From Candidatus Poribacteria bacterium (GTDB taxonomy: Bacteria > Poribacteria > WGA-4E > WGA-3G), in assembly GCA_965198235.1 (NCBI GenBank), contig OZ240248.1, positions 4,998,881 through 5,062,880 of the forward strand: a stretch of DNA of 64,000 nt, in the 5' to 3' direction. Each line of letters opens with the position of its first letter. Positions within the stretch are counted from its first letter, which is position 1. The notes under the pieces are model-generated. The model was not told the DNA's origin, did no database searches, and worked only from the letters and a program-made list of their open reading frames with translations. A program made the position numbers and the translations under genes. Shown piece by piece: positions 35,158 to 53,700 of this stretch.

Positions 35158-35170
35158 AAGGGGGCGGAAA

Positions 35171-35916: not shown

Positions 35917-35984
35917 TATGCATTCTCCTTCATTTGTTTTGAGTCAGTTTAAACGAATTAAGGGAGATTGTAAACTTTAAAAAT

Positions 35985-36013
35985 TTGACAATCGTCTGGA
36001 AATATCGTATAAT
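35985..36013 (+). promoter_or_regulatory. Perfect-consensus sigma-70 promoter (TTGACA-17-TATAAT) upstream of the Fe-S genes
   Basis: -35 at 35985-35990 and -10 at 36008-36013, about 68 nt upstream of ATG 36081. Confidence 0.5.
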
Positions 36014-36080
36014 TGCAAAAACAGGTTTCTTTCTAATAAAATTATAGACGTGCCTTCTTCTGCGATGCGGGAAATGTCCC

Positions 36081-36461
36081 ATGTATACGCCACAGGTGAC
36101 CGAACATTACGAAAACCCGCGCAATATCGGAACTATCGTCGATGCTGATGGCACTGCCAGTGTCGGTTCTCCGGCTGACGGTGAGATGATAAAACTGACA
36201 CTCAAAATATCGAATGACGTGATCGTTGCAGCGAAATTTCGAGCCTTCGGTTGCCCTACCGCTATCGCGAGTGCTTCGATCCTCACTGAACTGATTATAG
36301 GCACTCAGGTCCCGGAGGCATTGGAAATTACTGCTGTGCAGCTTTCTGATGCGTTGGGAAGACTGCCGCTGGATAAACAACGTTACGCGAACACTGCTGA
36401 AAAAGTCCTAAAAATGGCAATTGCTGATTTTCTGTCCAAGAAGGAGGGGCAGTCATCATGA
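36081..36461 (+). CDS. IscU/NifU-N-like protein lacking two of the three cluster-ligand cysteines
   Basis: HYENPRNIG and FGCPTAIASAS are conserved. GAPACGD has become GSPADGE, and LPPVKIHC has become LPLDKQRY. Confidence 0.8.
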   Translation: MYTPQVTEHYENPRNIGTIVDADGTASVGSPADGEMIKLTLKISNDVIVAAKFRAFGCPTAIASASILTELIIGTQVPEALEITAVQLSDALGRLPLDKQRYANTAEKVLKMAIADFLSKKEGQSS

Positions 36462-36787
36462 TTACTGTCACAGAATCTGCCGCGCAAAAAGCGGTCGCTC
36501 TCATTAGCCACAGTGAAGCTCCAGCTGAATCCGAACTCGGCTTGCGGATGCAGGTTATCGGCGGTGGATGCTCCGGTTTCCAATATAATCTTGAGCTTGG
36601 TGCCGCGAAAGGGACCGACAAAGTTTTTGAATTTCACGGCTTGAAAGTTTTCATCGATCCTCGTAGTACGCTCTATCTCGCAGGCTCGGTACTCGACTAT
36701 AACGATGGGTTGATGGATTCAGGCTTTAAAATAACAAATCCGAACGCTAAAAATACATGCGGTTGTGGTGAGTCGTTTAGCGTTTAA
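36458..36787 (+). CDS. IscA/HesB-family iron-sulfur cluster insertion protein
   Basis: 109 aa. GGGCSGF..NPNAKNTCGCGESF C-terminal signature. ATGA overlap with the upstream gene. Confidence 0.9.
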   Translation: MITVTESAAQKAVALISHSEAPAESELGLRMQVIGGGCSGFQYNLELGAAKGTDKVFEFHGLKVFIDPRSTLYLAGSVLDYNDGLMDSGFKITNPNAKNTCGCGESFSV

Positions 36788-36923: not shown

Positions 36924-38270
36924 TTACACCCACGAAGATCCTAACTCGTGCACCTTCAATGATACTATAGTTACTGGATTTCCCTCCGTGTAGATTCCGA
37001 TATCTGCGTTCTCCTGATCTGGGAGGAAATAGGATGTCATTGAGAGCTTACCATCGTCTCCGAATGCTTCGATAGAAATACGGTCGACTAAAATTTGCAA
37101 GCGGATTTTCCCATTTTGTGGCGCGAGGGGTCCGCTCTTTTCTAAGAATGTTAGTTGCTGCGATTCAACATCGTAACGGACATCCTGCCCGCGAATTTTG
37201 AAACCAACGGCGGTAGCATCGTTCAGGGCTATTTCAGCACGGATGTCGAACAACTCACCCGTCAGTCCAGAAAGCGGATCTTCATCCGGCTTGAGCGGGA
37301 GATCGCTCCACGCGTGCGTATACATGTGGATATTTTCGATCTCTGAGACCGGTTCTCGATGTAGACGTATACCTTCTGGAGTCGTCCGAAGGGTCAACTT
37401 GCACGGAAAGCTCATCTGTTGATTAAAAGGCATATCCGGTGGGTTACTGCCACTCATCCAAGCGATTTGAATACGTCTGCCATCGGATTCTGGGACATCG
37501 CTCCATGTTTGCGCTGCATAGAAGTTGGCACCGTAGTCAGAGCGTTGTGCGTCCCTTTCCGGAGTAAAGGTCGTTCCATCGAAATTACCGACGTAATATT
37601 TCCCTGCCGCACCCCAGAAAACCCATTTGGTATTATCGGGATCACCGTCAACGGGAAGCTCAAAGATGTCGGGGCATTCTGTGTCGGGAATCTGTAAGTC
37701 GGATAACCGTGTCCACTCCTTAAGGTTTGTCGAACCGAATAAGGTGTAGTCATTTTGGTCAAGATAGAGAGCCATCACCCACTTTTGCGTCGGTTCGTGC
37801 CAGATCACCTTGGGGTCGCGGTTACTCCCGACAAGATGTTCAATCACGGGATTCCCTTCATATTTTGTCCAACTTCGTCCGCGATCGTTGCTGTAGGCGA
37901 TACTTTGTGTAAATGGAACCTCTTTCGGAGCGTGGCTGCCTGCCGACGTGTAAAAATTGACGAGTACCGCCTCGTCGCCGGTCTGAAAACCACCGGTATT
38001 CTTCCAGTCCACGACACCAGAGCCGGAGAAGATTGTACCGAGTTCATCTGGATGGAGGGCATGCGGAAGTTGCTTCCAGTGGACGAGGTCTGTGCTGACA
38101 GCGTGTCCCCAGGTCATATTGCCCCAATCGATACCGGATGGGTTGTGTTGGAAGAAGAGGTGAAATTCGCCTTTGTAGTGGATTAAACCGTTCGGGTCGT
38201 TAGTCCAATTGGTTTTCGGTGTAAAGTGGAACTGTGGACGATACGCTTCCTTGTAAGCCGTTTGAATCAT
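36924..38270 (-). CDS. Glycoside hydrolase family 32 (fructan/sucrose beta-fructosidase)
   Basis: WTNDPNGL (nucleophile Asp), RDP, and an EC(P)D-type motif (TECPDIFEL). Confidence 0.9.
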   Translation of the reverse strand: MIQTAYKEAYRPQFHFTPKTNWTNDPNGLIHYKGEFHLFFQHNPSGIDWGNMTWGHAVSTDLVHWKQLPHALHPDELGTIFSGSGVVDWKNTGGFQTGDEAVLVNFYTSAGSHAPKEVPFTQSIAYSNDRGRSWTKYEGNPVIEHLVGSNRDPKVIWHEPTQKWVMALYLDQNDYTLFGSTNLKEWTRLSDLQIPDTECPDIFELPVDGDPDNTKWVFWGAAGKYYVGNFDGTTFTPERDAQRSDYGANFYAAQTWSDVPESDGRRIQIAWMSGSNPPDMPFNQQMSFPCKLTLRTTPEGIRLHREPVSEIENIHMYTHAWSDLPLKPDEDPLSGLTGELFDIRAEIALNDATAVGFKIRGQDVRYDVESQQLTFLEKSGPLAPQNGKIRLQILVDRISIEAFGDDGKLSMTSYFLPDQENADIGIYTEGNPVTIVSLKVHELGSSWV

Positions 38271-38645: not shown

Positions 38646-40187
38646 GTGATAAACCTTTGTAATGTCCTAAATAGTTCGATACGTCTACAGGTGCAGGCAC
38701 ATTGGGAACCGATTGCGGATTCTACGTTTCGTATGCACAAGACATCGCCAGAACACGTTGAACTCTTCGATCTGTCACCAAACCATCCTGTCAAAGAATA
38801 CAGGACAGACGCTTTCAAGGCATTTCTTCCGTCATCAACTGTAGGGGTGGGTGATGTTTGGGAACTTGATCCGAACAGTGTTGTCTCTTTCCTGCGCCAG
38901 TTTCATTCCGGTGTGACCACACCCGTATATCACGGTGCGGAGGGTGCGTTCGCCTGCTTACGTGCTTTTTCGTCAGTTTACGCTGAGATTGTTTTCCGAA
39001 TTCATGCGGACTTCACGTTGGAAAGCGTCGCTTATGAGAAGTGGCGTGCCGCCAACGCCTCGGAGGACGACGATAATAAATCCCGTTTTGTCCCCTCCCA
39101 TTTCGTCGGACGATTGTTAATCAATTTGAAAGAAGGAACGGTTCGGGTGTTTTCGCTCTATCTGCCGGCACGCAATAGTAACGTTGTCATCAGTGCTTTT
39201 GGCGGTATTGATATGGTTTATGTGCCGCGTATGGAACTCCTCGCTACGGACGAGACCGACAAAGACGAGATCGCGTGGGATGCTGCTATTACAACGGAAG
39301 AGGCACACCGGATGTTGGAATTGAAGTTCTATAAATTCGCTGAGATTGATTGGCTACCGATTGATGAGGCAGTTGCACAGGCGAAAGCGACCAATCGTCC
39401 GATCCATGCAATCCTCGTCTGGGGGTGTTTAGACGATGAATCCTGCTGAGCGAACGGCAAATATTTGAGGGCGGGTCCGCTCTCCGATTCAGAAGTGATA
39501 ACAACGCTCAACGAGAAGTTTGTCAATACATGGGTGCTCCTCCGGGAATTGCCAGAACTAATAGGTGGTGCGAAAGGCGAGGCGGTCAGCCTCGTCGCAA
39601 AAGAGATAAAACGCCACTACACTGACTCTGTAGATATTCTGGCACTCACCCCCGATGCGGAAGTTATCATGCATCAGCCGGAGATGGCTCTACCGTACAG
39701 GAACCAGGCGCAAGCGTATCTAAAAGTGTTACAGCATGCTGTGGACGCATTTGAAGGGAGACGCACCCGTGTAGGCAACGCGTCAAAATTAGATCGGAAC
39801 CCGATCAGCTTGGGGACGGAGTTGATGGAGGTTTTACACGTTTTTAGCACATCCGACACCAATACCCCGACTTACACAGTTATTGAAATTGATACGACAC
39901 CGTTTGAACGCGGTGGGATCCTCCACATTGAAATACATGTGGGTGAGAACAGGTTGGCAGGAACGTTTGAATTGTTTGATGCAGATACCGAAATTTCTAC
40001 AAAAAATGATGAAGATGAAACTCTGGATGGTGCATGGAACGTTTCATCCGGTGGTGTAGGGCACATCTTTCACGATTTTAGTCGGGGTCGGCGTTTCAAG
40101 TTAGTCGCTACAGGGGCAAACAACCAAAAGAGTGTTTCCAATGCTTTTCTGGCACGTGTCTCTATCGTCCCACCGTTTGAAAAATAG
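38646..40187 (+). CDS. Candidate selenoprotein A: unknown N-domain, thioredoxin-like fold with C-U motif (TGA 39447-39449 read as Sec), beta-rich C-domain
   Basis: ORFs 38646-39449 and 39465-40187 share a frame and are separated only by one TGA. The junction reads ..PIHAILVWGCLDDESC-U-ANGKYLRAGPLSDSEVITTLNEKFVNTWV. The second half has no SD or ATG. GTG start after GGAGG, and no signal peptide. Confidence 0.6.
39467..39484 (+). promoter_or_regulatory. SECIS-like hairpin 17 nt downstream of TGA (locus A)
   Basis: GAGGGCG-GGTC-CGCTCTC: 7 bp including one G-U pair, with apical loop GGUC. Confidence 0.45.
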
Positions 40188-40314
40188 CCCATATTATTCC
40201 AACCTACCTGTCAACGCGTGCCTGCCTATCTACGTTTCTATGAAATACATGCCGAATCGGTGGTGTTGTGTCTGTTCTATTAGGTTTGTGTCCGATTTTC
40301 CCTGATTTTTTGAA

Positions 40315-40357
40315 GAATTAGGCAACTTTCTTGTCCGTTACCCGCGTCACTATATAT
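40315..40357 (+). promoter_or_regulatory. ECF-type promoter motif P1 (GAATTAGGCAAC-N18-CGTCACTATATAT)
   Basis: AAC ends at 40326 and CGTC is at 40345-40348. About 120 nt upstream of the PD40 gene. Confidence 0.5.
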
Positions 40358-40477
40358 TGATATGGGAATCTACGCGAACAGAAACTTTCCGCGGGGAGGG
40401 TGTTTACATAGATATTTCCCGTAATTTAGTGTCGGGTAAAATCAAACATCAAGACTCATTTTAGTAGGAGGCACCCT

Positions 40478-41518
40478 ATGAAACATAAGTCGGTTTCTCC
40501 TTTTTTAGGAGTTGGAGGCTGCACCAAATTTCTAATATTCAGTTATGCTATCAGTGCCCTACTCATGTTCAGCGGCAGCACTGCTGTATGGGCAAAAGCC
40601 CCGGAGACAGCGAAAATTACATTTATGTCAAAGCGGGACGGTAACGCTGAGATCTATATCATGAACCCCGACGGGAGTGAGCAAGTCAATCTCACCCAAC
40701 ATCGTGCAGCCGATTATACACCAGCCTGGTCGCCAAACGGGAAACAGATATTGTTCAGCTCAGATCGAGATGGAATTTTTGATTTGTATCTTATGGACGC
40801 AGATGGCACAAATGTCCGGAAGGTGTTCGCAAGCAGCAAATACAGATGGGAGCCTGCCTGGTCGCCCGATGGTAAACGAATTGCCTATGCACAAGGAGAT
40901 CCAGGAAAGGCAAAACTACAGTTTGGGTTACGATTTGTCCCTTACGCCGATCTCACACTTTACATCGCAACACTAAATGGAGACTCCGTTGAGAAATTGA
41001 CGGATGGATTTGGTCCGAGTTGGTCTCCTGATGGACACGAGATAGCCTTTGTGGTGGGTGGTCGCAAAAGTACACTACTGGGTATTTACGACTTGAGGAA
41101 ACGTTCCCAAAAAACGCTCATCTCAAAGAAGATGCCGTGGATATTTGATCCCAGCTGGTCTGCACAGGGTGACAGAATAGCTTTCGCGAAACTCGAGGGT
41201 GCTGCGTTTGATGCACAAGGTTTTCTTAGGTTTAAGAAGGGTACGATTTACACCATAGATAGTGCTGGGGGTGGACTTCATCAGATTACCGACGAGAACT
41301 CTTCTGACCCAACCTGGTCCCCAGATGGCAGCGAACTCATTTACAACTCTCGGGTGGGTTTTTCGCAACTCTTCAGAACGGGCTTGAACGGCGACAATCC
41401 AACACAACTGACGCATGACGGAAGTAATTTGAGTCCAGATTGGTTTGACCCCTTTTATAGCGTTTCGCCGTCGGCGCAATTGTTAACGACGATGTGGGGA
41501 AAAATCAAAGTGGATTAA
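40478..41518 (+). CDS. Exported PD40/TolB-like beta-propeller protein with TTW-type tail
   Basis: Signal peptide. Repeated (P)xWSPDG/NG blades. Tail [15 protein letters not shown]. Confidence 0.8.
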
Positions 41519-41607
41519 GTTAACTATAAATCGTTCCAGATTCAGGGCAGTGAATGCCTTTTGCTTCCAATTGTCAAAATTTATTCCCAGATTTTCATTT
41601 TTTTTCA

Positions 41608-41650
41608 GAATTAGGCAACCGTTTTTCCGATCCTCCGCGTCACTATATAT
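41608..41650 (+). promoter_or_regulatory. ECF-type promoter motif P2
   Basis: GAATTAGGCAACC..CCGCGTCACTATATAT. AAC ends at 41619 and CGTC is at 41638-41641 (18-nt spacer). Confidence 0.5.
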
Positions 41651-41714
41651 CAACACGATATTTGTGTGACAAATTTTGGAAGATTCAAATGACTCCATAG
41701 GAGGAAGCGAAAAC

Positions 41715-42536
41715 ATGTTACGGACATTTACTGCTGCTTTTTCGAGTGTCATTATGCTATTGCTGGCAGCTTCTGCCAACGCGGGTTTGGATGAAGATCT
41801 CGTTTTTTATCTGACCTTTGATAACGTTAAAAATCAGACGATTATTGATGAATCTGGCAATGGTCTTGATGCAGAAATACTTGAGCATGTCGAGATTGTC
41901 AAGGGTAAATATGGAGATGCAATCCGTCTTAAAGGTCAAAGCGGGGATTGCGTTAATATCCCTGCTCAAGAGAAATTGAAAGTTATAGGCGAGATAACAA
42001 TGATGGCATGGATTTATTCTCCAGAAACATGGAACAACGAGAAGATGCATTGGCTGGAAAAAGATTGTCATTTCGTTGTTCCGATTGGTTGGGCGCACTG
42101 TTACGGTATCGCTGGTGTTGATGTCGGTAACGGACCAGAAATCTTTTTGTTTTTGGGATCACAGGTAGAGGGGAAATGGGACCGGCAGGAGTTCAGAACT
42201 CCACATAAAATGGGCGAAAAAAAATGGCATCACGTTGTCGGAAGTTACGATGGCGAAACCATGAAAATCTATGTGGATGGTACAGTCATAGGGGAAGAAA
42301 AGAAAAAATTCAATTTCTTTGGAGACAATGACGCGGACGTTCGGATCGGATGTGCAAAAGATGTCCCCCACCTTACATTCACAAACGGCTCTATTGATGA
42401 AGCTGCGGTCTGGCAACGAGCACTGAGTGATGATGAAATTAAACAAGCCATGACAGGGAACTTTCTCGCTGTTTCGCCGAGCGATAAAGTGGCGACGACT
42501 TGGGCGGATATGAAAAGAAGAGCAGTCGTTCCTTAA
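41715..42536 (+). CDS. Exported LamG-like domain protein with TTW-type tail
   Basis: Start set to the ATG at 41715 by comparison with the paralog at 43790 (RBS AGGAGGA). LVFYLTFDNVKNQT..DESGNG and IDEAAVWQRALSDDEIKQAM. Tail SDKVATTWADMKRRAVVP. Confidence 0.75.
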   Translation: MLRTFTAAFSSVIMLLLAASANAGLDEDLVFYLTFDNVKNQTIIDESGNGLDAEILEHVEIVKGKYGDAIRLKGQSGDCVNIPAQEKLKVIGEITMMAWIYSPETWNNEKMHWLEKDCHFVVPIGWAHCYGIAGVDVGNGPEIFLFLGSQVEGKWDRQEFRTPHKMGEKKWHHVVGSYDGETMKIYVDGTVIGEEKKKFNFFGDNDADVRIGCAKDVPHLTFTNGSIDEAAVWQRALSDDEIKQAMTGNFLAVSPSDKVATTWADMKRRAVVP

Positions 42537-42579
42537 CGGCTACCTGCAAAGTCAGAATTTCCCCATAAAGGAATGTAGG

Positions 42580-43602
42580 ATGAAAACAATACGGTTGTTA
42601 GTTTTTGCCATATTGAACATATTGATGCTGAACGTAAGCGTTTGCCTCGCTTTCGCAACAGCACCCACAACCGCCAAAATTCTGTTCACCTCTTCACGGG
42701 ACGGCAATTATGAGGTCTACATCATGAATCCGGACGGTAGTGAACAGGTGAATTTAACACAACATCGCGCAAATGATTTTCAAGCCGTATGGTCCCCCAC
42801 TGGGGAGCAGATTCTTTTTGTCTCCGATCGCGATGGCGGCATCCGAGACTTGTATCTGATGGACCCCAGTGGATCCAATGTCCGACGCGTTTTCACGAGG
42901 AAACGAAAGTCTTATAGGGATTCTCCGACGTGGGCACCCGATGGCAACCAGATTGCTTACGTACACCTGAATTGGAACGGTGTCAGGTTCCATATCTACG
43001 TTGCAATCTTGGGTAAACAAAAAGAGGAACACCTCGTTGAGGGTAGACGTCCGACGTGGTCACCCGATGGAACGAAAATAGCATATATGTCTTATATTGT
43101 AGATACCTGCCGAATTGCTCTTATTGACCCCCACACACGAAGGCAAAAACACCTCCTATCGAGGAAAGCAACGCCTTGGCAAAATCATCCATTTTGGTCG
43201 GCTACGGGGAGCAAACTCGCTTTTTCTTGGAATAAGAATCCGTTACCGCGCCTTTTGCCGGGTGATCGTTTCCCATCCGTATGGCTGGATAAGGAGACAA
43301 TCTATATTGTGAACAGCGACGGGACCGATCTCCGAGAACTTCTGGATGAAGCTGGGCCCAGAGCACAGTATCCAGTGTTGTCGCCAGACGGGAAAGAGGT
43401 ACTTTATACACAAGAAATTAAGGGTCGCCTACAAATTTTCAAACTTGATGTACACAGTGCCACTCGGGCACAGTTGACAAATATCGGGCGAGTCTTTGAG
43501 GCGAATTTCGGAGGGGATTGGTTCGATCCTGTGTATTCGTTGCCTGTTTCGCCACAATCGCGACTGCTAAGCACAGTATGGGGAAAAGTAAAAAAGAAAT
43601 AG
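42580..43602 (+). CDS. Exported PD40/TolB-like beta-propeller protein with TTW-type tail (paralog)
   Basis: Signal peptide and WSP(T/D)G repeats. Tail QSRLLSTVWGKVKKK. Confidence 0.8.
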   Translation: MKTIRLLVFAILNILMLNVSVCLAFATAPTTAKILFTSSRDGNYEVYIMNPDGSEQVNLTQHRANDFQAVWSPTGEQILFVSDRDGGIRDLYLMDPSGSNVRRVFTRKRKSYRDSPTWAPDGNQIAYVHLNWNGVRFHIYVAILGKQKEEHLVEGRRPTWSPDGTKIAYMSYIVDTCRIALIDPHTRRQKHLLSRKATPWQNHPFWSATGSKLAFSWNKNPLPRLLPGDRFPSVWLDKETIYIVNSDGTDLRELLDEAGPRAQYPVLSPDGKEVLYTQEIKGRLQIFKLDVHSATRAQLTNIGRVFEANFGGDWFDPVYSLPVSPQSRLLSTVWGKVKKK

Positions 43603-43682
43603 TGTCATAGGTAGAATCACCATGAAACTGCTGTGTTATGCACGTTTTCCGCTTTGTGTATCATATTTTCTTTATGTTTGCA

Positions 43683-43725
43683 GAATTAGGCAACCGTTTT
43701 GTCTGTCTCCCGCGTCATTATATAT
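43683..43725 (+). promoter_or_regulatory. ECF-type promoter motif P3
   Basis: GAATTAGGCAACC..CCGCGTCATTATATAT. CGTC is at 43713-43716 with an 18-nt spacer. The downstream leader is nearly identical to that after P2. Confidence 0.5.
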
Positions 43726-43789
43726 CGATACGATAGCTGTGTGACAAATTTTAGAAAGTTCAAATGACTCTATAGGAGGAACAGAAAAC

Positions 43790-44611
43790 ATGTTACGGAC
43801 ATTTATTGCTGCTTTTTCGAGTGTCGTTATACTGTTGTTGGCAGCTCCTGCCAACGCAGGTTTGAATGAGAAACTCGTTTTTTATCTGACGTTTGATAAT
43901 GTTAAAGATCAGACAGTTGTTGACGAATCTGGGAATGGTCAGGACGCAGAGATACTTGAGAACACCGAGATTGTCAGGGGCAAATATGGGAATGCCATTC
44001 ATATTACAGATGATGGTCAGGATTGCGTCAGTATTCCTTCTCAGGAAAAACTGAAAATTACAAGCGAAATAACAATGATGACCTGGATTTATTATCAAGA
44101 AACATGGAAAGGCAAAAGGATGTTGCATTGGCTTGATAAAGGCTGCCATTCGGGAGACGGTTGGGCTGGAACTTACGGTATCGGCAGTTCCGATATCGGT
44201 AACGGACCAGAGATTGTGTTGTTTTTCGGGTCGCGGGAGAAACAGGGGATTACGGACCGGCATGAATTCGCAGTTCTACACAAAATGGGTGTTCAAAAAT
44301 GGCATCATGTTGCTGGGAGCTACGATGGGAAAACCATGAAAATTTATTTAGATGGTAAAGTCATAGGTGCGGAAAAGAAGAATTTCAATCTCTTTGGTGG
44401 TAATAACGTGAACCTCAGGATCGGATGCGCAAAAAACAGCCCGCAGTATGCATTTGCCAACGGTTCTATTGACGAAGCCGCAGTCTGGCAACGAGCATTG
44501 AGTGATGATGAAATCAAGCAGGCGATGGTAGGGGACTTCCTCGCTGTTTCACCGAGTGATAAAGTTGCAACGACTTGGGCGGATGTGAAAAAGAGGATGA
44601 TAGCCCGTTAG
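43790..44611 (+). CDS. Exported LamG-like domain protein with TTW-type tail (paralog of 41715-42536)
   Basis: About 70% identical by eye to 41715-42536. Tail SDKVATTWADVKKRMIAR. Confidence 0.75.
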   Translation: MLRTFIAAFSSVVILLLAAPANAGLNEKLVFYLTFDNVKDQTVVDESGNGQDAEILENTEIVRGKYGNAIHITDDGQDCVSIPSQEKLKITSEITMMTWIYYQETWKGKRMLHWLDKGCHSGDGWAGTYGIGSSDIGNGPEIVLFFGSREKQGITDRHEFAVLHKMGVQKWHHVAGSYDGKTMKIYLDGKVIGAEKKNFNLFGGNNVNLRIGCAKNSPQYAFANGSIDEAAVWQRALSDDEIKQAMVGDFLAVSPSDKVATTWADVKKRMIAR

Positions 44612-44724
44612 CGGGTTTCTGGAAAGTGAGAATGCTATCACCCTTATTGATGCTTCAAAATCCTGTAAGTGATAATGAAGCGGAATATTTAAGCATTGTT
44701 ATTTAAGGTATGTGCACCTTTGCA

Positions 44725-44767
44725 GAATTAGGCAACCGTTTTGTTTGTTCCCCGCGTCACTATATAT
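44725..44767 (+). promoter_or_regulatory. ECF-type promoter motif P4 (upstream of the selenoprotein B / ECF sigma unit)
   Basis: GAATTAGGCAACC..CCCGCGTCACTATATAT. CGTC is at 44755-44758 with an 18-nt spacer. The following GAATCTACGCGAA is shared with P1. Confidence 0.45.
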
Positions 44768-44908
44768 CGAGATTAGAATCTACGCGAAGAACAACTTTTT
44801 GTATAAGTGTTGTTTGCGTAGAATGTTCTTGTTAATTGCTATAACGTGAGTTCAATATGAGAAATTGGTTCACTATATAGGTCGTGTTGAACAAAAAGGG
44901 ACATAACA

Positions 44909-45037
44909 CCCAAGATGCATATTTTGCTCCGTAGGAGCAACATGTCTATAGCAGTCGTCCGACACGACGTTTCCGCGCCGTAGGTGCGGTATGTAGTATC
45001 ACCAGAGATAGCTCCGCTGGGAGTGCGAGTACTTGGG
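44909..45037 (+). repeat. Cluster of four short GC-rich hairpins enclosed by CCCAAG/CTTGGG
   Basis: GCTCC-GTA-GGAGC (44926-38), GTCGT-ccgac-ACGAC (44954-68), CCGCGCC-GTA-GGTGCGG (44973-89), GCTCC-gctg-GGAGT (45011-24). The outer pairing is 44909-14 with 45032-37. Confidence 0.4.
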
Positions 45038-45186
45038 CATCGGGTTTTCTATTCTCACTGCGAAGCAATAGTACTGCTCTGGAGCGATGGAATTTGTCCG
45101 TCACCTGCTTGGAATAGGCGTGATATATCCTGTCGAATCTTTCTAATCTTTATGTCAACTCCACGTTACTATAAGGAGATTTGAAG

Positions 45187-46866
45187 ATGAAAATCTTAAC
45201 CGTTGGGTTTCTTATTCTGGTAATGATGAGTGGAGTGCTGAATGCCGATAACCACTCAACAACTCACAACAAAATTACACTGAACCTTGACGGGACCCCA
45301 GAAGTATCTGTCAAAGGCTTCATTGCTCCGATTGAATATACACAATACAATTTCCATGTGGAGTGGGATGAACTGGCAAATCTGCGGGTTGCTGAGCCGG
45401 AGAAGCGGTATTCTGCATCGGTTTTCCATGCCTTTCTGCCCTCCGAAGCGGTTTCTGTAGGCGATCTCTGGCAGATTGAGGAAGAGGGGGTGCTAGAATT
45501 ACTAAGGCAACTGAACCCCAATCCGAGGCTGGACCTGGACATCAATATGGGAGATTCCCGTGGACTGTGGGCATGTCTGCGCGCCTACAATGATGAATTT
45601 GCTAAGATTGTGTTCCGCATCCATGCAGAATTCGTCTTAAACGATGGTCGGTTCACTCCATCTCAGTTTACAGGACATCTTGTTATTGATCGAATTAGAG
45701 AGAGGATTGCCTCCTTCAAGATGTATGTTCCTGAAGGTGTACTGAATTTTGATGTCGGGCGAAACAGTATCGGAGCTATAGATGTCGGTTTTTGCCCGCA
45801 AATGGAACTCCGTGCTAAGGCACCAGAAGTGGTATCGGACATCAAGTTTGCGGAGTCCATCACCCAAGAAGCGGCTGAGCGGGTGCTGATACTGCGTTTC
45901 TACAGATCGCAACAAATCAACTGGGTGTCTCTGGAAGAAGCGTTAGAGACGGCACCGGCGCAACGAAAACCTGTTCATGTTGTTTCGATAGATGGACCGC
46001 TTGCGGATGAGTCGTGCTGAGGGAGTGGCAAAACTCTGAGGGCAGTTGTCCTCTCTGACGATAAAATTATAGAGTTCTTGAACGAAAACTTTGTTAACAC
46101 ATGGGTGCCGAATTCTGAATTAGGGCGCGTCTCCAGTTTGCGGGAGCCGATTGACAAGAGACGCGAGCGCGAAGGTAAAACGTTTGACACAAGCCACGCC
46201 TTGGCACAAGCAATTATAAAGGGTTGGAAAGAGGGGTCGCCTGTGGATTGTCTGGTTATCTCGCCGGAGTTTGAAGTGATGGGTAGGCAACCTGTCAACG
46301 AAATCGGGTGGTCCAACGGAGTAGCATTTTACATGAATTTCCTCCAAGAGTCCTTAGAGGGGAAACTACCAGGGTTCGGTGAGGCCGCCTCGAAACCTTT
46401 ACCGAAACCTAGTTCAGAGTCTTACTCTGGATTAGGTGCTGTTGTGCCAGAGGATTTAAAAGTTATACTCACCCGTGAAAAGCCCCAGCAGGAAGTTCTC
46501 AGCATTTTCCGGACACCAGAATCCGGCTATCAAGATTATACTGTCGTTGAAATTGATACGACAGCGTTTAAAGGCGGCGGTATGCTTACTATTGATATCT
46601 TAGTAGGAAGTGCTGAATCCAAAGGCTCGTTCGATCTTTATGATGGTGACACTGAACTTCCAACACAAGGTATGCCTCGCGGCGCGCTTACCTCTGCGTG
46701 GGATGTTCCTCCCGGTAAAAGAGGAACAATCAAGTATCGTTTTGACCGGGGTAAAGTTTTTAAGTTAGGAGCTACAGGCAGTTGGTTCAGTAAGGAAGGG
46801 AACATCAACGCTTTTCTCGCTACAATTTCTGTAGCCCCTATGGCGAAAGAAAGTAACGAACATTAA
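45187..46866 (+). CDS. Candidate selenoprotein B (exported): unknown N-domain, thioredoxin-like fold with C-U motif (TGA 46018-46020 read as Sec), beta-rich C-domain
   Basis: ORFs 45181-46020 and 46078-46866 share a frame with only one TGA and no other stop between them. The junction reads ..PVHVVSIDGPLADESC-U-GSGKTLRAVVLSDDKIIEFLNENFVNTWV. ATG at 45187 after AAGGAG. Signal peptide MKILTVGFLILVMMSGVLNA. Confidence 0.6.
46038..46053 (+). promoter_or_regulatory. SECIS-like hairpin 17 nt downstream of TGA (locus B)
   Basis: GAGGGC-AGTT-GTCCTC: 6 bp including one G-U pair, with G and U in the apical loop. Same offset from the TGA as in locus A. Confidence 0.4.
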
Positions 46867-46962
46867 CGCCACTTCCATGCTAATGTGTCTCCCAAAAAAG
46901 TCTGCCCAGCATGGAATATTATTATAGCGTCTAATGAAGTTATCCCGTTCTGGAGGTAACGA

Positions 46963-48291
46963 ATGAAAAACGACGATGTCGAATTAATTCAAGGCAGTCT
47001 TATAGGCGATGAAAAAGCCTTTGCGAAGTTGGTGAGAAAATACCAGAAGCAGGTTCACGCACTCGCGTGGCGGAAAGTAGGCGATTTCCACATCGCTGAA
47101 GAGATTACGCAGGATACCTTTTTAAGGGTTTATAAGAAACTGGCAACGCTGAAGGATCCGCATCGTTTTGCAGGATGGCTTTATAGAATCGCTGCACGCC
47201 AATGCCATGCCTGGCTCAGAAAGAAACGGATGCAAACGCAATCGCTTGAAGACACAGACATCGAACTGATAGAGGGAGGGACGTATTCTCAATACATTGC
47301 CGAGGAGCAGGAGAAAGCTGCGGTAGATGCGCAACGCGATATTGTCCAAAGGTTACTCGCTCGGCTGCAGGAAAGTGAACGCACTGTCGTCACACTCCAC
47401 TACTTCGGGGAGATGACCTGTGAAGAGATTAGCCGATTTTTGGGTGTATCAGAGAGTACCGTTAAGAGTCGGCTCCGCCGTGCGCGGCACCGCTTAAAGA
47501 AGGCGGAACCCATGATCCGAGAGGCACTGGAAGGCTTCCAAGTTAGGGCGAATCTCACCGAGAATATCATGCAAGAAATTGCCCGTATCAAACCTACTCC
47601 ACCGCCCAGTGGTAAACCGTTTGTGCCGTGGACAATTGCCGCCTCAACCCTTGTTCTCGTTGTGATGGCACTTGGAGCAAGTAGTCAGTACTTAACACGT
47701 TTCCAACAACCTTACAATTTTGATGCCACATCCGAAATGACAGTAGAACTCATTGACACGCCTATGGTTCTGAATCTCGCATCGAAACCGGATGTGCGGA
47801 CCCAAGCCGGTAAATCTGTGACACCGAGTAAAGGCGACGGACATACCCCGAGCACAAATCAATCAGAATATGTGCCGAGATTTCTTTCTGCCCAAGCAAA
47901 GAACGTCGTGCTTGATAATAAACAGCCTTCGCAGGATGTTTTGAGCATTTTCCAAACACCGGCGGCGGGCTATCAAGACTACACTGTCATTGAGATTGAT
48001 ACGACGGCATTTAAAGATGGCGGCACGGTCACTATCGACCTTTGGATTGGGAGCGCAGAGGCTGCTGGTGCTTTCATTCTGTTTACAAGCGACAGCGAAA
48101 TCCCCACAGACAGTATGCCTAAGGTTATACTCACCTCAGCATCAGGAATCATACCCGGTAAATCAGGGCGGATCACGCACCGTTTTGACGAAGGCACACG
48201 CTTTAAGTTAGGAGCTACCGGTAATTCGTTCAGTGGGGAAGGGAAGGTCAATTCCTTTCTCGCAAAAATCTCTATAGACGCTACGTTGTGA
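46963..48291 (+). CDS. ECF sigma factor fused via one TM helix to an extracytoplasmic domain homologous to the selenoprotein C-domain
   Basis: Region 2 (ITQDTFLRVYKKL..FAGWLYRIAARQCHAWLRKK) and region 4 (ERTVVTLHYFGEMTCEEISRFLGVSESTVKSRLRRARHRLKK). TM helix WTIAASTLVLVVMALGASS. C-terminal ..DVLSIFQTPAAGYQDYTVIEIDTTAFKDGG..FKLGATG..NSFLAKISI parallels 46490-46850. Confidence 0.8.
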   Translation: MKNDDVELIQGSLIGDEKAFAKLVRKYQKQVHALAWRKVGDFHIAEEITQDTFLRVYKKLATLKDPHRFAGWLYRIAARQCHAWLRKKRMQTQSLEDTDIELIEGGTYSQYIAEEQEKAAVDAQRDIVQRLLARLQESERTVVTLHYFGEMTCEEISRFLGVSESTVKSRLRRARHRLKKAEPMIREALEGFQVRANLTENIMQEIARIKPTPPPSGKPFVPWTIAASTLVLVVMALGASSQYLTRFQQPYNFDATSEMTVELIDTPMVLNLASKPDVRTQAGKSVTPSKGDGHTPSTNQSEYVPRFLSAQAKNVVLDNKQPSQDVLSIFQTPAAGYQDYTVIEIDTTAFKDGGTVTIDLWIGSAEAAGAFILFTSDSEIPTDSMPKVILTSASGIIPGKSGRITHRFDEGTRFKLGATGNSFSGEGKVNSFLAKISIDATL

Positions 48292-48630
48292 TAATCTTAA
48301 TCCGCGAACTTGTATTGAAACTTTCGCAACTCCTGCCTAATCGCTGTATTTCTCGTTCTGCCGTTTTCTCTCCACTTATTTGACAAAAGGTAAACCCTCC
48401 AGCTCGTCCTACGTTTTAACTTTCCAATATACCGCCAGTAGAATCATTTGTACACTTTGAATCGCAGGAAATCTATGAGGAAATCCCACGAACCTGTATG
48501 TATGAGTTGATTCATGGTATAATTCTACCAATAAATTCGTTTGTCCAAATTTAATCTACATAGGACTTACACAAACACGGATGTCTGGGACTACAAGTGA
48601 GCCTGATTTTTACGTTTTTTCTGAACTTAT

Positions 48631-48658
48631 GCAACCCTTTCACCAGCAAATTGCGTCA
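48631..48658 (+). promoter_or_regulatory. Diverged ECF-type promoter motif P5
   Basis: GCAAC-N18-CGTCA with the same AAC-to-CGTC spacing (48636-48653), about 105 nt upstream of ATG 48768. The flanks are not conserved. Confidence 0.3.
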
Positions 48659-48767
48659 TTTAACAATGACTAACAATGACAAACGGTAGAATTTATCGGA
48701 CAAACAGTGCAATAAACCGAAGAATGGGGACATAGTGCCAAAGTCCTACTCTCCTAAGGAGAAAGCA

Positions 48768-50612
48768 ATGTTAAAGAAATGTTTACCCTTATGCTTCACC
48801 GTGTCGATATTTCTGATAATCCTTCTATTCGCCACTTTCAATGTGGTAGAAGCCCTACCAGATTCATCTAAGGTATCCGAATCGGCACCCGTAGATACAC
48901 CTTCTCAAAAATCTGAAAGCGCACCAGTTCCTGTTCCAGACAACAGTGTTCTGAACCTAATTCCTGAAAAAGCATTAGGCGTTATCTACTGTCCGAGTCT
49001 GCTGGAATTGGATAACAGAATTAACAAGATAGTAACTGAGCTCTCCCCTCAAATCGAGGTCCCCGATGTATCTATGCAGATTTTGAAGAGTATTTTCGGA
49101 GATGCGTTTGAAAGTTTAGCCGATTTTGAAGAAATTGGGTTGGATTTGAACCAAGATTTCGCGGTCTTCATTACCAGTTTGCAGCCACTGCATCTCTCGG
49201 CACTGGGGCATCTAACGGGTCCTAAGGCAATGAAACAGATAATTGAAGCCGAAGGCGGCACACCCTCGCAATATAAAGGCGTAACCTATTGGAGTGCCAG
49301 CGAAGGTAATAAGAGTTTTGCTATTTTGGAGAATATCCTCGTTTTTTCAACGCCTCGCGGGATTTGTGAGAACGTTATTGATACCTATAACGGAGCGGGG
49401 TATGCTATCACACAGAACCCAAATTACACCACTTTTCTTATAGATATTTTGGAGGGTGACGATCAAGTGGGGGTGTGCGTTGATGTTGAAGCCATTATTG
49501 CCACCTTCGATAGTCTGCCTGAAGAGGAATTGGAGTCAATAGTAAACGCTCTCCAAGATGGGGATCCGATATCCAAGTCAATTGCATCCTTCCTTGAAGA
49601 TATACCTGGAGAGGAAATAGGAAGCATTGAGCAGTTCCGATCAATAAACGTCCGGCTGGAGGTAGAGGGAACCGGTGTGCAAATTAAGCCGTCCGTGAAA
49701 TTCAGAAGCGATAGTGAATTTCTGAAAGTCTTGGAAGAAAGGTCTGGTGAATTAACTTTCCTCGACGAACTCCCAAATCGTGCAGCTATGAATGGTGCCG
49801 TTCAAGGTTGCCCACAGTTGCTGGTTGAGCTGAGTAGGTTCTGGTTAGATACTCTTCCCACGGTAACTCCAGAACAACAGGCGCAGCGGGATTTGCTCCT
49901 CAAACAGGTGAAAGATTTTCATGAATCTCTTGCAGATCGATGGAGGGTTTCTTTCGGTTTTGAGGATACGCTTTTACCGACTTATCTGTTTATCTATGAA
50001 CTGAAAGATGAACAGGCTGCCAGGGTCTATATGGATGAGGTGTTTCTGGAACATCTCAGCGATCAAGACGCTTATGCAGGTAAGTCGATCATGCACAACC
50101 GCGTTGAAATTAAAAGTTACATCTTTCCTGATCTCACAGAGGGGCTTCCAGAGGAATTGCCCGAAGAAATCTCTGGTTTGTTGCCCACCAAATGGCACTG
50201 GTATTATGCATTTACCGAAGGGCAGCTCCTTTTCGCAACGGGTACAGGTCCAGAATCAATTCAAATGGCACTTGATAGGAAAGCAGGAAACGAGGCGAAA
50301 TTTTCTGAGCATCCGAGTTATCAAAAACTCGTCGACATATTAGGGACTGACTCCAACATCTTCTGTGCGATATCTCCAGCCATCGCGGCTAAAAACTCTT
50401 TGCCGATGTTTGGGAAGATGGATCCGGACAATGCCGCGGTAATGCAAATACTGGCAGGGATATTCATGAGTCTCCCTGAGAACTATAGTATCGGTTTTTC
50501 CGCCAAAAGAACGGACAATAGCATTGATGCGAAACTGCTCATTGACCTTGGTGACTTCAAGCAGCTTATACAAATGATGGAAATGATGGCTCAAATGAGG
50601 CAGAGGCAATAG
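48768..50612 (+). CDS. Membrane-anchored or exported hypothetical protein (about 614 aa)
   Basis: Start at the ATG at 48768, after AAGGAG. N-terminal hydrophobic helix, then a Ser/Pro-rich linker with the repeat SESAPV. No domain I can name confidently. Confidence 0.6.
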   Translation: MLKKCLPLCFTVSIFLIILLFATFNVVEALPDSSKVSESAPVDTPSQKSESAPVPVPDNSVLNLIPEKALGVIYCPSLLELDNRINKIVTELSPQIEVPDVSMQILKSIFGDAFESLADFEEIGLDLNQDFAVFITSLQPLHLSALGHLTGPKAMKQIIEAEGGTPSQYKGVTYWSASEGNKSFAILENILVFSTPRGICENVIDTYNGAGYAITQNPNYTTFLIDILEGDDQVGVCVDVEAIIATFDSLPEEELESIVNALQDGDPISKSIASFLEDIPGEEIGSIEQFRSINVRLEVEGTGVQIKPSVKFRSDSEFLKVLEERSGELTFLDELPNRAAMNGAVQGCPQLLVELSRFWLDTLPTVTPEQQAQRDLLLKQVKDFHESLADRWRVSFGFEDTLLPTYLFIYELKDEQAARVYMDEVFLEHLSDQDAYAGKSIMHNRVEIKSYIFPDLTEGLPEELPEEISGLLPTKWHWYYAFTEGQLLFATGTGPESIQMALDRKAGNEAKFSEHPSYQKLVDILGTDSNIFCAISPAIAAKNSLPMFGKMDPDNAAVMQILAGIFMSLPENYSIGFSAKRTDNSIDAKLLIDLGDFKQLIQMMEMMAQMRQRQ

Positions 50613-50747: not shown

Positions 50748-53700
50748 TTAGAGTTCTGCACTGACCGTCATTTCCAAGCGGTGTTCGGGTTTCCGCTGTT
50801 TTGTGGAGAGTAAGCGGTAATTGAGCCGAAGCAGAAGGTCGGTAAATTTTCGCAGTCTGTAATCTGCGGTTGTGCGGACTTCGTGGCTGATGCCTTCGTA
50901 GAAAGTGTACTGTGCAAAGGGTATGCCACCCTTACTCTCGCCATAGCCGAGTTTATAGTTGACATCAATGCGTCCTTTACCAATAAGACTATACGTGAGG
51001 CGATTTTCAAATGAGAAGGTCCGCGTTCTGGCTTCTGGCTCCTCGTCAAGCTGCTCCTTGTCAATTGTACGATTATATCCTCCGATACCGCTCCATCGCA
51101 CGGAATTGCTGAGTTCATATCGGAGGCTCAATTCAGTCGTCTGCTCAAATTGGCGTAGGTCTGAGATAGGCGTTGATGGAAGGTCTCCCCTGTTCGTTAT
51201 AGTCTCGGTTTCCTGAGTGAGTTCTTCCACTTGGAGTTGACTGTATTTCTCAGTTTCCCGGCGTTGTTCCCAGTTTACACCGAGGGACATACGTTGCGTT
51301 GGGTTCACGGAGAGACCGACATCCCATGTCCTGTGCCGCCTGTGGCGTTCTTGATTATTAATCCGACGATTGAGGGTCTCGCCAACACGAAGGTTGAACT
51401 CGAAACTGAATGCTGGTGATGGCGAGAATTCGAGGCGATGGTGTTGATTCAACCGACCAAAAAGCGTTTCTGAGCCTTGTAGACTTTGGAGCAGATAGAG
51501 GGACACCGCCTCCTCTACCTCCTGTTCCTCGGTCAGCCACAGGCGCGTTTGACCTCTGAGGGCATTTAGAAACCATTCTAAGCGAGACAGGCGTGGGCTT
51601 CGTGCCGCGATTGTGTTGGATAAAGATGGTGTTTGTTGATTCCCTTCTTGGGTAGATGATGACCGAGTCGGGCGCAAGCTATCACGTTTCAACATTGATT
51701 CACGATGCTGTTGTTGTCTTGCTCTGGCACGCCGTGTGAAAAACTGGCGGGGTTGAAAACGCACTCGGAATTCTGCATCTACCGCTGTTGTCGGTTTATC
51801 ACCCACATTTTGATAAATCTTGACATAAGTGCCCTCCTCGGGATCCTCTACGTAGTGCAGGTCATCCAACTTTACGTAGTATCCTTCACCGGGTTGAAGC
51901 AGAACACCAGTGTGTGGATGGATGTCGGTATAGACTTCGCGGCGTTGGCTTGTTAGTTTTTTGTCTAATTCATAGGCGATTTCTATATCAATTGCCCGAC
52001 TGAGTGGTGTGAGCTGGAGATTGACATCCGCGAGTTGCGTCGTTGTATTCGCACCGAGATCGGTGTGTGCTTTCAACATCCGGCGCGCAATGTTTGCTGT
52101 CAGATTCACCCCTCCGTTGAGAAAGGATTGTTGTTGTGAAAGGACGCCTACCTTCCAAGTCCGTGCTGTGGTATTTCGCTGCCAATCCGACAAACCGATA
52201 GGCTCATCATCAACAGTAAGCAACGGTTCTTTAGCAAAAGCCTCCTCAAGTTCATAACTGGTGTTCAAAGATACCCAGTTGAAATCAGCGAGGTCAATAC
52301 GTCCAGTTGCGCGGTTCCGCTTTCGGTTGAGCGTAGCATTACGCGCCTCGCTCGACTCCACTCTTCCCAGTGTTCCTATAATTCTGAATGGACCGAGAGG
52401 ATACGACAGATTACCTTCTTGACGTGACTTCTGTAGCGATTGTGTCCTTGTTGAATCTGCCCCCTCCATCCGGGAACTGCTACGATAGTCGTCCCAACGG
52501 AGATTCGGCAACCTCTTCAGTAATTGCGTTCCTGCAGACGTGCTCTGTTCCGACTCTACTGAATTCTTCTCTTGTCCAATTATAGGCAGCGTGCTTTCCC
52601 GCGTGAGGGTAGGGCTAACTCGTCCACTACCTAAACGCCGGTTGAAGTTGACCCCCCAGTTGAAATTGTTGCGGATCGTTGCGTTTGCAGTAGGTAAAAC
52701 TTCTGTTTCATCTGTGGTCGCGGTGGCCTCCTGAACGGTTCCCTCGCGTTCTGGGTCTTTCTCTTCGCTCCTACCGACTCCCGCGTCAACCTCCAGCCAA
52801 CCTGTGGGAATCATTCGGATGTCGAAGTTCATGGTTCTCTCATCTTGGGAAGTTCGCGGGCTGCCCGCTGTGTCGAGCAGGAACGCATCATCAAATCCCT
52901 CTGTGGCGTATTGTGTTTCGTAACGGGAGCGGGAACGGTTGCTGCTTGCGGCACCCACAGGCACGAAGTTAGCATCCATCGACCGTATGTCGAGGTTTGT
53001 GGTCAGTTTAGGACGCAGCTGATCCGTCCATGTTGCAAAGTCCCAATCGGCATAGCCGATCAGTTTCCACGCCCGACTTACCTCTTTCCGATCGACAGCA
53101 GAGTAGGTATTTTTATCAAGATTACTATAGGCGAATTCGCCTTGAATCCACGCCTGTTCTGTAACGTTCAGACGACTCTCCAGTCCCCATACAGTATGCT
53201 TTTGTGGTGGTATGAGGGGCGATTCGTCTTCCTTAGGATTAAGGATGTTTTGGCGAAGTGCCTCCAGTTCTACATCTTCAAACGTGATTAGAGACTGTTC
53301 TGGTTGATTCAGATCTGCTTCAACAGCGTAGGACGCTCCAAAAGTTAAACGTTCACCCGGCAGTGTGAAGACGCTGCTAAGTCCGTAAAGATTCTGTTGA
53401 TACGCCCGATCTTCCGGGATGTATTCAAAGTCGATCCGAATCACATCGTTGCTCGTTATGAGATGCTTACTGTTAAACTCGACAATTGGGTCTCCATATT
53501 CGCGGATGATGTAATCATTGTTTTCGCCGCGCCGCATCCTTTCACCGTTCAGCCAAACGATTTCACTGCCTGCTTTTACAAGGACGTATTGTCCATCAAC
53601 TGTGAGTCGATATTCACTGCGTCCTTCCTCACCGCGCAGGACTAAACTTGTAGACTGGCCCTTCGGAATGGCAGTCGGAATGAAGTGAAAGTCCACCCAT

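Follow-up and report, generated by a model that had tools for sequence, protein, structure and literature searches.

Bacterial homologues of selenoprotein N encoded next to a membrane-anchored extracytoplasmic function sigma factor in Candidatus Poribacteria

Introduction

Mutations in SELENON, the gene of animal selenoprotein N (SelN, also called SEPN1), lead to the SEPN1-related myopathies, and the biochemical role of the protein is partly understood. SelN acts on luminal cysteines of SERCA2 that have been hyperoxidised by ERO1-derived peroxide (PMC12839072). In human SelN, U462 and R466 lie within the sequence SCUGSGR, of which the SCUG motif recalls the GCUG of thioredoxin reductase, and animal SelN mRNAs carry a hairpin, the selenocysteine (Sec) codon redefinition element (SRE), just 3' of the UGA (PMC12839072). 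These SRE elements have been proposed to derive from the bacterial Sec insertion sequence (bSECIS) (Mariotti et al. 2015, PMC4561486). A second group of described systems comprises extracytoplasmic function (ECF) sigma factors fused to a transmembrane (TM) helix, namely IutY (ECF243), SCO4117 (ECF52) and members of ECF48 and ECF53. IutY, a sigma/anti-sigma hybrid, is documented to be released by proteolysis, and the same route has been predicted for ECF48, ECF52 and ECF53 (PMC8999054). Here, we describe a locus that brings the two together. It lies at 38646-50612 of a 64,000-nucleotide (nt) stretch of a Candidatus Poribacteria genome (contig OZ240248.1; hereafter the window), from a lineage of sponge symbionts, and comprises eight genes on the + strand, among them two for SelN-like selenoproteins and one for a membrane-anchored ECF sigma factor.

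Taken singly, the parts of this locus are already known in kind: a sensor-fused ECF sigma factor, members of the SelN family, recoding by a bSECIS, and PD40 and LamG proteins. Nothing on bacterial SelN homologues, on selenoproteins of Poribacteria or on their ECF sigma factors was found in the open-access full-text literature searched, SelN is absent from a 2026 review of prokaryotic selenoproteomes, and NCBI names the SelN-like homologues 'hypothetical'. An initial annotation of the window, made from the DNA letters alone, had proposed a self-regulating envelope system and knew of no described system of such composition; within that literature the module indeed appears to be undescribed, as do bacterial SelN homologues, their large expansion in sponge symbionts and the conserved link, present in each of two separate clades, between them and ECF sigma factors. 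On balance, we think it probable that the locus belongs to a conserved, lineage-wide ECF-sigma module whose core is formed by the sigma factor and bacterial SelN homologues and which serves redox sensing and repair in the envelope.

Bacterial members of the selenoprotein N family

The core of the locus consists of the following features.

38646-40187, + strand: SelN-like selenoprotein A, 513 amino acids (aa) with the TGA read through; N-domain, thioredoxin-like domain with a Cys-Sec dyad, C-terminal beta-sandwich
39447-39449, + strand: Sec codon TGA of SelN-like A, motif DDESC-U-ANGK
39467-39484, + strand: bSECIS-like hairpin of SelN-like A, GAGGGCG-GGUC-CGCUCUC
39828-40166, + strand: C-terminal beta-sandwich of SelN-like A
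45181-46866, + strand: SelN-like selenoprotein B, 561 aa with the TGA read through; signal peptide, N-domain, thioredoxin-like domain (SCUGSGK), C-terminal beta-sandwich
46018-46020, + strand: Sec codon TGA of SelN-like B, residue U280 after C279, motif DESC-U-GSGK
46038-46053, + strand: bSECIS-like hairpin of SelN-like B, GAGGGC-AGUU-GUCCUC
46462-46833, + strand: C-terminal beta-sandwich of SelN-like B
46963-48291, + strand: membrane-anchored ECF sigma factor; sigma-2 at 47029-47229, sigma-4 at 47338-47502, one TM helix at 47629-47685
47905-48276, + strand: periplasmic C-domain of the ECF sigma factor, homologous to the SelN-like C-domains

A profile search over 1.84 billion representatives returned 744 relatives of the SelN-like proteins. 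These include animal proteins from wombat (P0358, with an EF-hand), Nematostella (P0332), mussel (P0348, with an EF-hand) and hagfish (P0384), the last of which carries the UniRef name 'Selenoprotein N'. BLASTP aligns SelN-like A with the wombat protein at 28.7% identity over 349 aa (E 1e-37) and SelN-like B with the same protein at E 4e-29. When the Poribacteria profile is aligned with the wombat protein by hhalign, the probability is 99.8% (E 7e-28, 31% identity over 247 columns), and the aligned blocks comprise ACLxA, (V/A)FRIHAEF, F(T/C)PSQFTG, PQMEL, the active site and LNExF(V/I)(N/S)TW. The active-site motif SCUGSG[K/R] is found as SCUGSGK in SelN-like B and takes the form SCUANGK in SelN-like A; the bacterial Lys aligns with R466 of human SelN.

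Judged by sequence, the window Sec proteins are bacterial members of the SelN family, with an architecture that differs from that of animal SelN. The initial annotation had called them Sec-thioredoxin-like; the thioredoxin-like domain with its Sec stands, while the family had been missed, and the domain is hence not an unknown one. Homology to animal SelN covers the N-domain core and the thioredoxin-like region, and both sides share an identical SCUGSG[K/R]-TLR motif, with Sec directly after Cys, and a hairpin directly 3' of the UGA, which is an SRE in animals and bSECIS-like in Poribacteria. The compartments also correspond, being luminal in animals and extracytoplasmic for the exported bacterial members. 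Moreover, animal SelN is a type II protein of the endoplasmic reticulum (ER), and the bacterial sigma fusions described below likewise have the N-terminus inside, a single TM helix and the SelN domain outside. In contrast, the window proteins show no EF-hand match in Pfam and no type II anchor, and instead have a signal peptide (B) or none (A). As the EF-hand and the anchor belong to the animal architecture, we regard the window proteins as homologues of animal SelN, not as orthologues built in the same way. They further differ in their additional C-terminal beta-sandwich domain, in the bacterial decoding of Sec and in their linkage to an ECF sigma factor. Bacterial genomes also hold many paralogues, including tandem arrays without signal peptides and a Gly variant, and SERCA2 cannot be the bacterial substrate.

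Selenocysteine decoding

Both in-frame TGA codons reported by the initial annotation are present, as are the gene content and order on the + strand. Each SelN-like gene contains a single such codon with good coding on both sides, in the context ...WGCLDDESC-TGA-ANGKYLRAGPLS... in A and ...GPLADESC-TGA-GSGKTLRAVVLS... in B. Across 75 related loci and the window, Cys-TGA is kept in 136 of the 138 family copies, the other two having Cys-GGC. Homologues in protein databases are nearly all split at the Sec site, with N-halves ending in ...DE[AS]C and C-halves beginning with ...LRAGVLSDD, and most N-halves among the 744 relatives stop exactly at the Cys. Bona fide Cys-Cys homologues (DESC-C-GSGK) are present as well, P0255 being a natural Cys-Cys form.

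The hairpin 3' of the TGA is conserved at positions 21-26/31-36 (GAGGGC-AGGU/AGUU-GUCCUC), and in A-type genes it has 7 bp and a GGUC loop. Its stem falls on the codons for Leu-Arg-Ala and Val-Leu. Its pairs, from 21-36 to 26-31, are formed in 101-119 of 119 distinct sequences. Synonymous codons within it are frozen (Leu is CUC in 117 of the 119 sequences, and Arg is AGG or AGA only), and pair 24-33 has undergone 13 compensatory double changes from G-C to A-U. For the window hairpins taken singly, fold z-scores are weak (-1.1 and -0.1). As in the SelB-dependent bacterial SECIS, the UGA is followed 17 nt later by a G+C-rich hairpin of 6-7 bp with a 4-nt loop containing G and U (AGGU, AGUU or GGUC), and this arrangement is conserved across the 119 sequences. 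A difference is that the window hairpins match no Rfam family, none being found on the whole 64-kb window. Decoding of the TGA codons as Sec is well supported by the conservation of the Cys-TGA pair and the hairpin, by the existence of Cys-Cys homologues and by the U that animal SelN has in the corresponding position. The Sec assignment of both proteins made at the outset is thereby strengthened.

A full-length Gly paralogue class (P0001) is encoded at L001 10001-11674 and L002 6422-8095 (L numbers denote related loci and P numbers single proteins). It has GGC at the Sec site and keeps the adjoining Cys (DEAC-G-ASGK), and both copies lie directly downstream of a sigma-plus-C-domain gene. That the Gly might reflect a TGA read by an alternative genetic code was considered and ruled out, the codon being a real GGC. 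The class may represent a redox-inactive or a single-Cys regulatory variant.

Domain structure of the SelN-like proteins

The Gly-variant homologue P0001 was modelled with AlphaFold2 (mean predicted local distance difference test score 78.7) and stands in for the Sec proteins. The model has three domains, and the C-[U/G] dyad lies between a beta-strand and the N-terminus of a helix in the thioredoxin-like domain, which places the Cys-Sec dyad at the predicted canonical active-site position of the thioredoxin fold. Foldseek matches this domain to the Thioredox_DsbH structures 7tkv and 3ira; in Pfam and NCBIfam a sub-threshold Thioredox_DsbH match is the only one obtained for the Sec proteins. 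The isolated N-domain and C-domain have no Pfam match even at E 10, and a sequence-profile search of the PDB found no relative of the SelN-like proteins. A likeness to CorA (4bz4) suggested by the full-length model (template modelling (TM) score 0.41) did not recur and was set aside.

The C-domain, of about 125 aa, resembles at the fold level the bacterial pre-peptidase C-terminal (PPC) and collagen-binding-type beta-sandwich domains, with Foldseek matches (E 3e-5) to the ColH collagen-binding domain (3jqw; target-normalised TM score 0.65), PliG and the Tk-SP C-domain. Like the PPC domain it may end a secreted peptidase, as it does once in the PD40-S9 peptidase P0287. Unlike these domains, it has no sequence match to any Pfam family and also serves as the outside domain of the sigma factor and of a BlaR1-type signal-transducing peptidase of family M56, P0329 (from a Planctomycetota metagenome-assembled genome), which carries it twice. 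By its distribution in sequence databases it behaves as an unnamed mobile extracytoplasmic module.

A membrane-anchored ECF sigma factor

The product of the gene that follows SelN-like B matches Sigma70_r2 (residues 23-89), Sigma70_r4_2 (126-178) and Sigma70_ECF in Pfam, and reaches 98.8 bits with the NCBIfam sigma70-ECF model against a cutoff of 42.9. It contains sigma-2 and sigma-4, without sigma-3 or sigma-1. A single hydrophobic helix at residues 223-241 (mean Kyte-Doolittle value 1.98 over 19 residues) separates sigma-4 from the C-domain. The claim that the sigma factor and the Sec proteins have a domain in common proved right: sigma residues 315-438 are 60% identical to residues 428-551 of SelN-like B (BLASTP, E 4e-46), and this C-domain of about 124 aa is 42% identical to that of SelN-like A. 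Copies of the sigma factor from many genomes share 79-95% identity. In a crude neighbour-joining tree the sigma C-domains are not cleanly monophyletic.

In several respects the window protein resembles the TM-fused ECF sigma factors introduced above. Sigma-2 and sigma-4 are its only sigma regions, a TM helix and an outside domain follow, there is no separate anti-sigma gene, the putative promoter is of the AAC/CGT type, and the operon is likely to be autoregulated. It differs from them in that the segment linking sigma-4 to the TM helix contains no recognisable anti-sigma or zinc-finger domain, and in that its putative sensor domain is a Pfam-unassigned beta-sandwich common to the neighbouring selenoproteins.

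Conservation of the SelN-sigma linkage

A genome scan found 384 coding stretches, and the 73 loci retained are all from Candidatus Poribacteria. A SelN-like gene directly precedes the sigma gene on the same strand, with gaps of 3-512 nt, in 39 of the 39 full-length sigma-plus-C-domain genes. After the sigma gene, 8 related loci have a DUF3352 gene and 14 have a shorter paralogue of the sigma gene. Loci such as L015-L018, L032 and L034 repeat the gene order of the window, with varying numbers of PD40, LamG and SelN-like genes, and the locus L076, which was reached independently through the sigma search, has the order GH32, A, PD40, B, sigma, insertion sequence, DUF3352, 1290-aa gene.

The linkage also extends beyond Poribacteria. 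In a separate clade of Cys-Cys homologues, made up of metagenomic contigs, an ECF-type sigma gene (242-342 aa) lies directly upstream of the SelN-like gene on the same strand in 4 of the 4 contexts examined. The neighbouring genes of this clade hold families that we take to be typical of Planctomycetes, such as SBP_bac_10, and by these families the clade is tentatively labelled Planctomycetes-like. Furthermore, the two components can be joined in one protein: P0256 consists of sigma-2 and sigma-4, a TM helix and a SelN-like Cys-Cys domain, whereas P0330 combines a Poribacteria-type sigma, a TM helix and an A-type SelN domain, with a reading frame that stops at the Sec codon. The coupling of selenoprotein and sigma factor, put forward as a hypothesis in the initial annotation, thus recurs in all 39 sigma-containing Poribacteria loci, in a second clade and as direct fusions. 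The neighbourhood is conserved in related genomes, so that the condition under which the initial annotation would have been refuted, a neighbourhood kept in no related genome, does not hold, and Cys versions that keep the sigma linkage do exist.

SelN-like genes also occur in tandem arrays of 2-6 copies, in L036, L038, L047, L050, L067, L070 and L073 (e.g. L036 4842-11560). Each gene of these arrays has Cys-TGA, so that single genomes encode at least six selenoproteins of the SelN-like family. The array proteins start with METLxNKITLNLD... and, having no signal peptide, are presumably cytoplasmic; in some arrays, free-standing C-domain genes lie between the SelN-like ones.

In L003, L010-L012, L019-L026 and L064, the main sigma gene is followed by at least one shorter ECF sigma paralogue (e.g. 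L011 15163-16089). These paralogues keep the sigma-plus-TM part and have no C-domain. A variant motif, GAATTATGCAAC...CGCGTCACTATA, precedes their genes and is of a class that is also found before the DUF3352 gene, which suggests a sigma cascade or a second promoter specificity.

A shared promoter motif and variable accessory genes

The remaining features of the cluster are four putative ECF-type promoters, one putative variant promoter and the genes of five exported or anchored proteins.

40315-40358, + strand: promoter P1, ECF-type, GAATTAGGCAAC-N18-CGTCACTATATAT
40478-41518, + strand: PD40_1 (TolB-like beta-propeller), signal peptide, TTW tail
41608-41651, + strand: promoter P2, ECF-type, for LamG_1 and PD40_2
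41676-42536, + strand: LamG_1 (Laminin_G_3), likelier start ATG at 41715; signal peptide, TTW tail
42580-43602, + strand: PD40_2, signal peptide, TTW tail; 43-nt gap after LamG_1
43683-43726, + strand: promoter P3, ECF-type
43790-44611, + strand: LamG_2, signal peptide, TTW tail
44725-44768, + strand: promoter P4, ECF-type, for the SelN-like B-sigma operon
48630-48659, + strand: variant promoter P5, TGCAAC-N18-CGTCAT, upstream of the DUF3352 gene
48735-50612, + strand: DUF3352 protein, 625 aa, hydrophobic anchor at the N-terminus

A 45-nt block, TTTGnAGAATTAGGCAAC-N18-CGTCAyTATATAT, occurs in four exact copies in the window, at 40315, 41608, 43683 and 44725, where it precedes PD40_1, LamG_1 (followed by PD40_2), LamG_2 and SelN-like B; even for a looser pattern, 0.18 occurrences are expected in the window. 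A -35 element ending in AAC and a -10 element with CGTC are the hallmarks of ECF promoters, and the block has GGCAAC at -35 and CGTC at -10. Over 1.4 Mb of related loci, GAATTAGGCAAC-N18-CGTCA is found 112 times on the gene strand versus 12 times on the other, and the copies precede SelN-like, PD40 and LamG genes. A TATGCAAC variant precedes the short sigma genes and the DUF3352 gene in related loci, and the DUF3352 genes of L006, L013 and L034 likewise have the P5-type variant upstream. Judging from its type and position, the motif would be used by the window ECF sigma factor. The shared promoter that had been proposed for the cluster is supported by the four exact copies and the P5 variant, and does not extend to SelN-like A, which has no motif. 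A generic scan for sigma-70 promoters and terminators was uninformative (21 sites versus 18.9 expected). In metagenomes, the strict motif gave no match, and a 17-mer scan gave mostly chance matches and 8 true motif copies, all in cluster-type loci, with no new regulon members.

The leader between P4 and SelN-like B (44760-45180) is unusually long at about 420 nt; most related genomes have some 120 nt there. Over roughly the first 150 nt it resembles the leader of PD40_1 (40350-40477), including ...GA(T/G)TAGAATCTACGCGAA..., and it has no Rfam match. The leader may be a common 5' untranslated element or a decayed insertion.

The PD40, Laminin_G_3, Sigma70_r2/r4 and DUF3352 assignments were confirmed with Pfam and NCBIfam, and an N-terminal hydrophobic signal or anchor was found in PD40_1, PD40_2, LamG_1, LamG_2, SelN-like B and the DUF3352 protein. 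When the eight proteins were compared with one another by BLASTP, all three paralogue pairs that had been claimed were confirmed: SelN-like A and B are 35% identical over 542 aa (E 6e-92), and identity is 43% for the two PD40 and 69% for the two LamG proteins. Together with their promoters, the LamG genes form 300-nt repeats of 85% and 77% identity at a spacing of 2075 nt. Recent duplication looks limited to the LamG genes with their promoters, and the other pairs are old paralogues; the 'duplicated cassette' of the initial annotation thus holds for the former and not for the latter. Nor can the PD40 and LamG genes be counted among the core members, as had been supposed. Their number ranges between genomes from none to several, and 16 of the 39 sigma-containing loci have no PD40 or LamG gene, so that they are variable accessories.

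All four PD40 and LamG proteins of the cluster carry, as had been noted, a tail near the C-terminus with the pattern [VL]xPxxKLxTTWGxIK (TTW tail). The same tail is present on two unrelated proteins of the window that resemble 3-keto-disaccharide hydrolases (19052-19735 and 19866-20555, both + strand). It is also found on many unrelated exported proteins in L003-L059, including PD40, LamG and 3-keto-disaccharide-hydrolase/LamG-like proteins and the product of a 1614-codon reading frame. In a broader form, [VL]xPxxKL(A/T)TTWGx(I/L)K, 0-10 further residues come after the pattern. Neither the SelN-like proteins nor the sigma factor nor the DUF3352 protein is tailed in this way, and the tail matches no NCBIfam CTERM model. 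The tail is a phylum-wide tag, not one specific to the module, and looks like a sorting or anchoring signal.

Upstream of the cluster (33203-36787, + strand; 36924-38270, - strand) lie futalosine-type menaquinone genes, a 184-aa open reading frame (FUR in the syntenic L076), NifU-like and HesB/IscA-like Fe-S assembly genes and a GH32 fructosidase gene. This order is identical in L076, and the cluster thus occupies a fixed chromosomal site in the lineage. Downstream, and convergent with the DUF3352 gene, lies a gene for a 1265-aa protein with a signal-like N-terminus (50748-54545, - strand), whose counterpart in L076 is syntenic and encodes 1290 aa; the protein has no match in Pfam or NCBIfam.

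Proposed mechanism and alternative explanations

Homology, dyad position, recoding signals, gene adjacency, fusions, the common domain and the motif are observed, and from them we infer the following mechanism. The C-domain, the exported SelN-like B or both would sense a signal in the periplasm, for which oxidative stress, thiol stress or a common ligand is most likely. The sigma factor would then be released, probably by regulated proteolysis by analogy with IutY, and would transcribe its own operon, in a positive autoregulation, together with the genes of the exported PD40, LamG and DUF3352 proteins. SelN-like B, in turn, would reduce oxidised cysteines of envelope proteins by means of its selenenylsulfide-forming Cys-Sec pair, much as animal SelN does with SERCA2 in the ER lumen. 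The occurrence of the C-domain on the BlaR1-type transducer and on the PD40-S9 peptidase is counted in favour of this domain as a sensor module.

Several observations weigh against this proposal. SelN-like A has no signal peptide, and no upstream frame provides one; it also has no motif upstream, and both absences are shared by its orthologue in the syntenic L076. The tandem arrays come without a sigma gene, motif or signal peptides, and the SelN-like family is therefore not purely periplasmic or sigma-controlled. Three other, more distant homologues of Cys-type or divergent sequence have no adjacent sigma gene. Within the sigma factor, Pfam detects no anti-sigma or zinc-finger domain, and sigma-4 ends only some 40 aa before the TM helix. 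No gene for a site-1 or site-2 protease was found in the cluster. None of selA, selB, selD and tRNA-Sec is encoded within the 64-kb window, on which ARAGORN finds no tRNA at all, tRNA-Sec included. Finally, a model of the N-domain of SelN-like B (predicted TM score 0.75) has no credible Foldseek match in the PDB (best E 0.013, TM score below 0.2).

The most probable alternative is that the SelN-like partner mainly senses the redox state of the periplasm, as a co-sensor or as a functional anti-sigma partner and not as an effector, and that the redox state of its dyad or the pairing of C-domains gates the proteolytic release of sigma. The SelN-like gene lies directly downstream of the sigma gene, the usual position of an anti-sigma gene, in the Cys-Cys clade and in L001 and L002; the SelN domain takes the place of the periplasmic sensor in the fusions; the C-domain is common to the sigma factor and its SelN-like neighbour; and animal SelN has been described as a sensor with a redox output (PMC12839072). 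However, the C-domains of sigma factor and neighbour show no sign of co-evolution or concerted evolution, since in only 1 of 40 cases does the Sec-type C-domain nearest to that of a sigma factor belong to the same locus, and the SelN-like family has expanded far past one copy per sigma gene. We therefore regard a predominantly sensory partner as possible and rather unlikely. Such a role is compatible with a module for sensing and repair, and some sensory part for the SelN-like partner is favoured by the fusions and by the gene order in the Cys-Cys clade.

It is improbable that the genes merely share a location, in a hot spot of paralogue expansion where the motif travels as a passenger of segmental duplication and no working regulon exists. 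Such an origin would suit the LamG genes, which together with their upstream regions are recent duplicates, and the PD40 and LamG content that varies from none to several genes. The motif, however, precedes non-homologous genes (PD40, LamG and SelN-like), its conservation is limited to about 45 nt between diverged flanks, and it is kept across many genomes with the strand bias given above, and the linkage of sigma and SelN recurs in a second, separate clade and in gene fusions. A maturation or sorting system for TTW-tailed proteins, which the initial annotation had entertained and which the tails of all four PD40 and LamG proteins of the cluster might suggest, is very improbable, since the tail is widespread on unrelated proteins far from such clusters, the 16 sigma-containing loci mentioned above have no PD40 or LamG gene, and the SelN-like, sigma and DUF3352 proteins are themselves untailed.

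Origin and significance of bacterial selenoprotein N

We tentatively consider that the SelN domain could be an ancient bacterial extracytoplasmic module of redox sensing and repair that feeds ECF sigma signalling, and that animal SelN came from a bacterial gene, possibly by transfer from a symbiont to an early animal, or that transfer went in the reverse direction; at present this is a possibility that we would not call likely. If it were true, the SRE hairpin of SEPN1 would be a surviving bacterial SECIS, and SelN would be the first family in which the derivation of SRE from bSECIS could be examined position by position.

The bacterial SelN family is large, with Sec, Cys and Gly variants, exported forms and forms without signal peptides, and a hard-wired link to a transcription factor. 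For ECF sigma signalling it would add a new type of sensor domain, and in sponge symbionts it makes up an unusually large selenoproteome drawn from a single family. SELENON has no solved structure in the PDB copy searched and no Pfam model. The bacterial homologues would offer tractable proteins for structural work and enzymology, comparative data on which SelN residues are important and, in the activity of the sigma factor, a genetic read-out of what the SelN domain senses.

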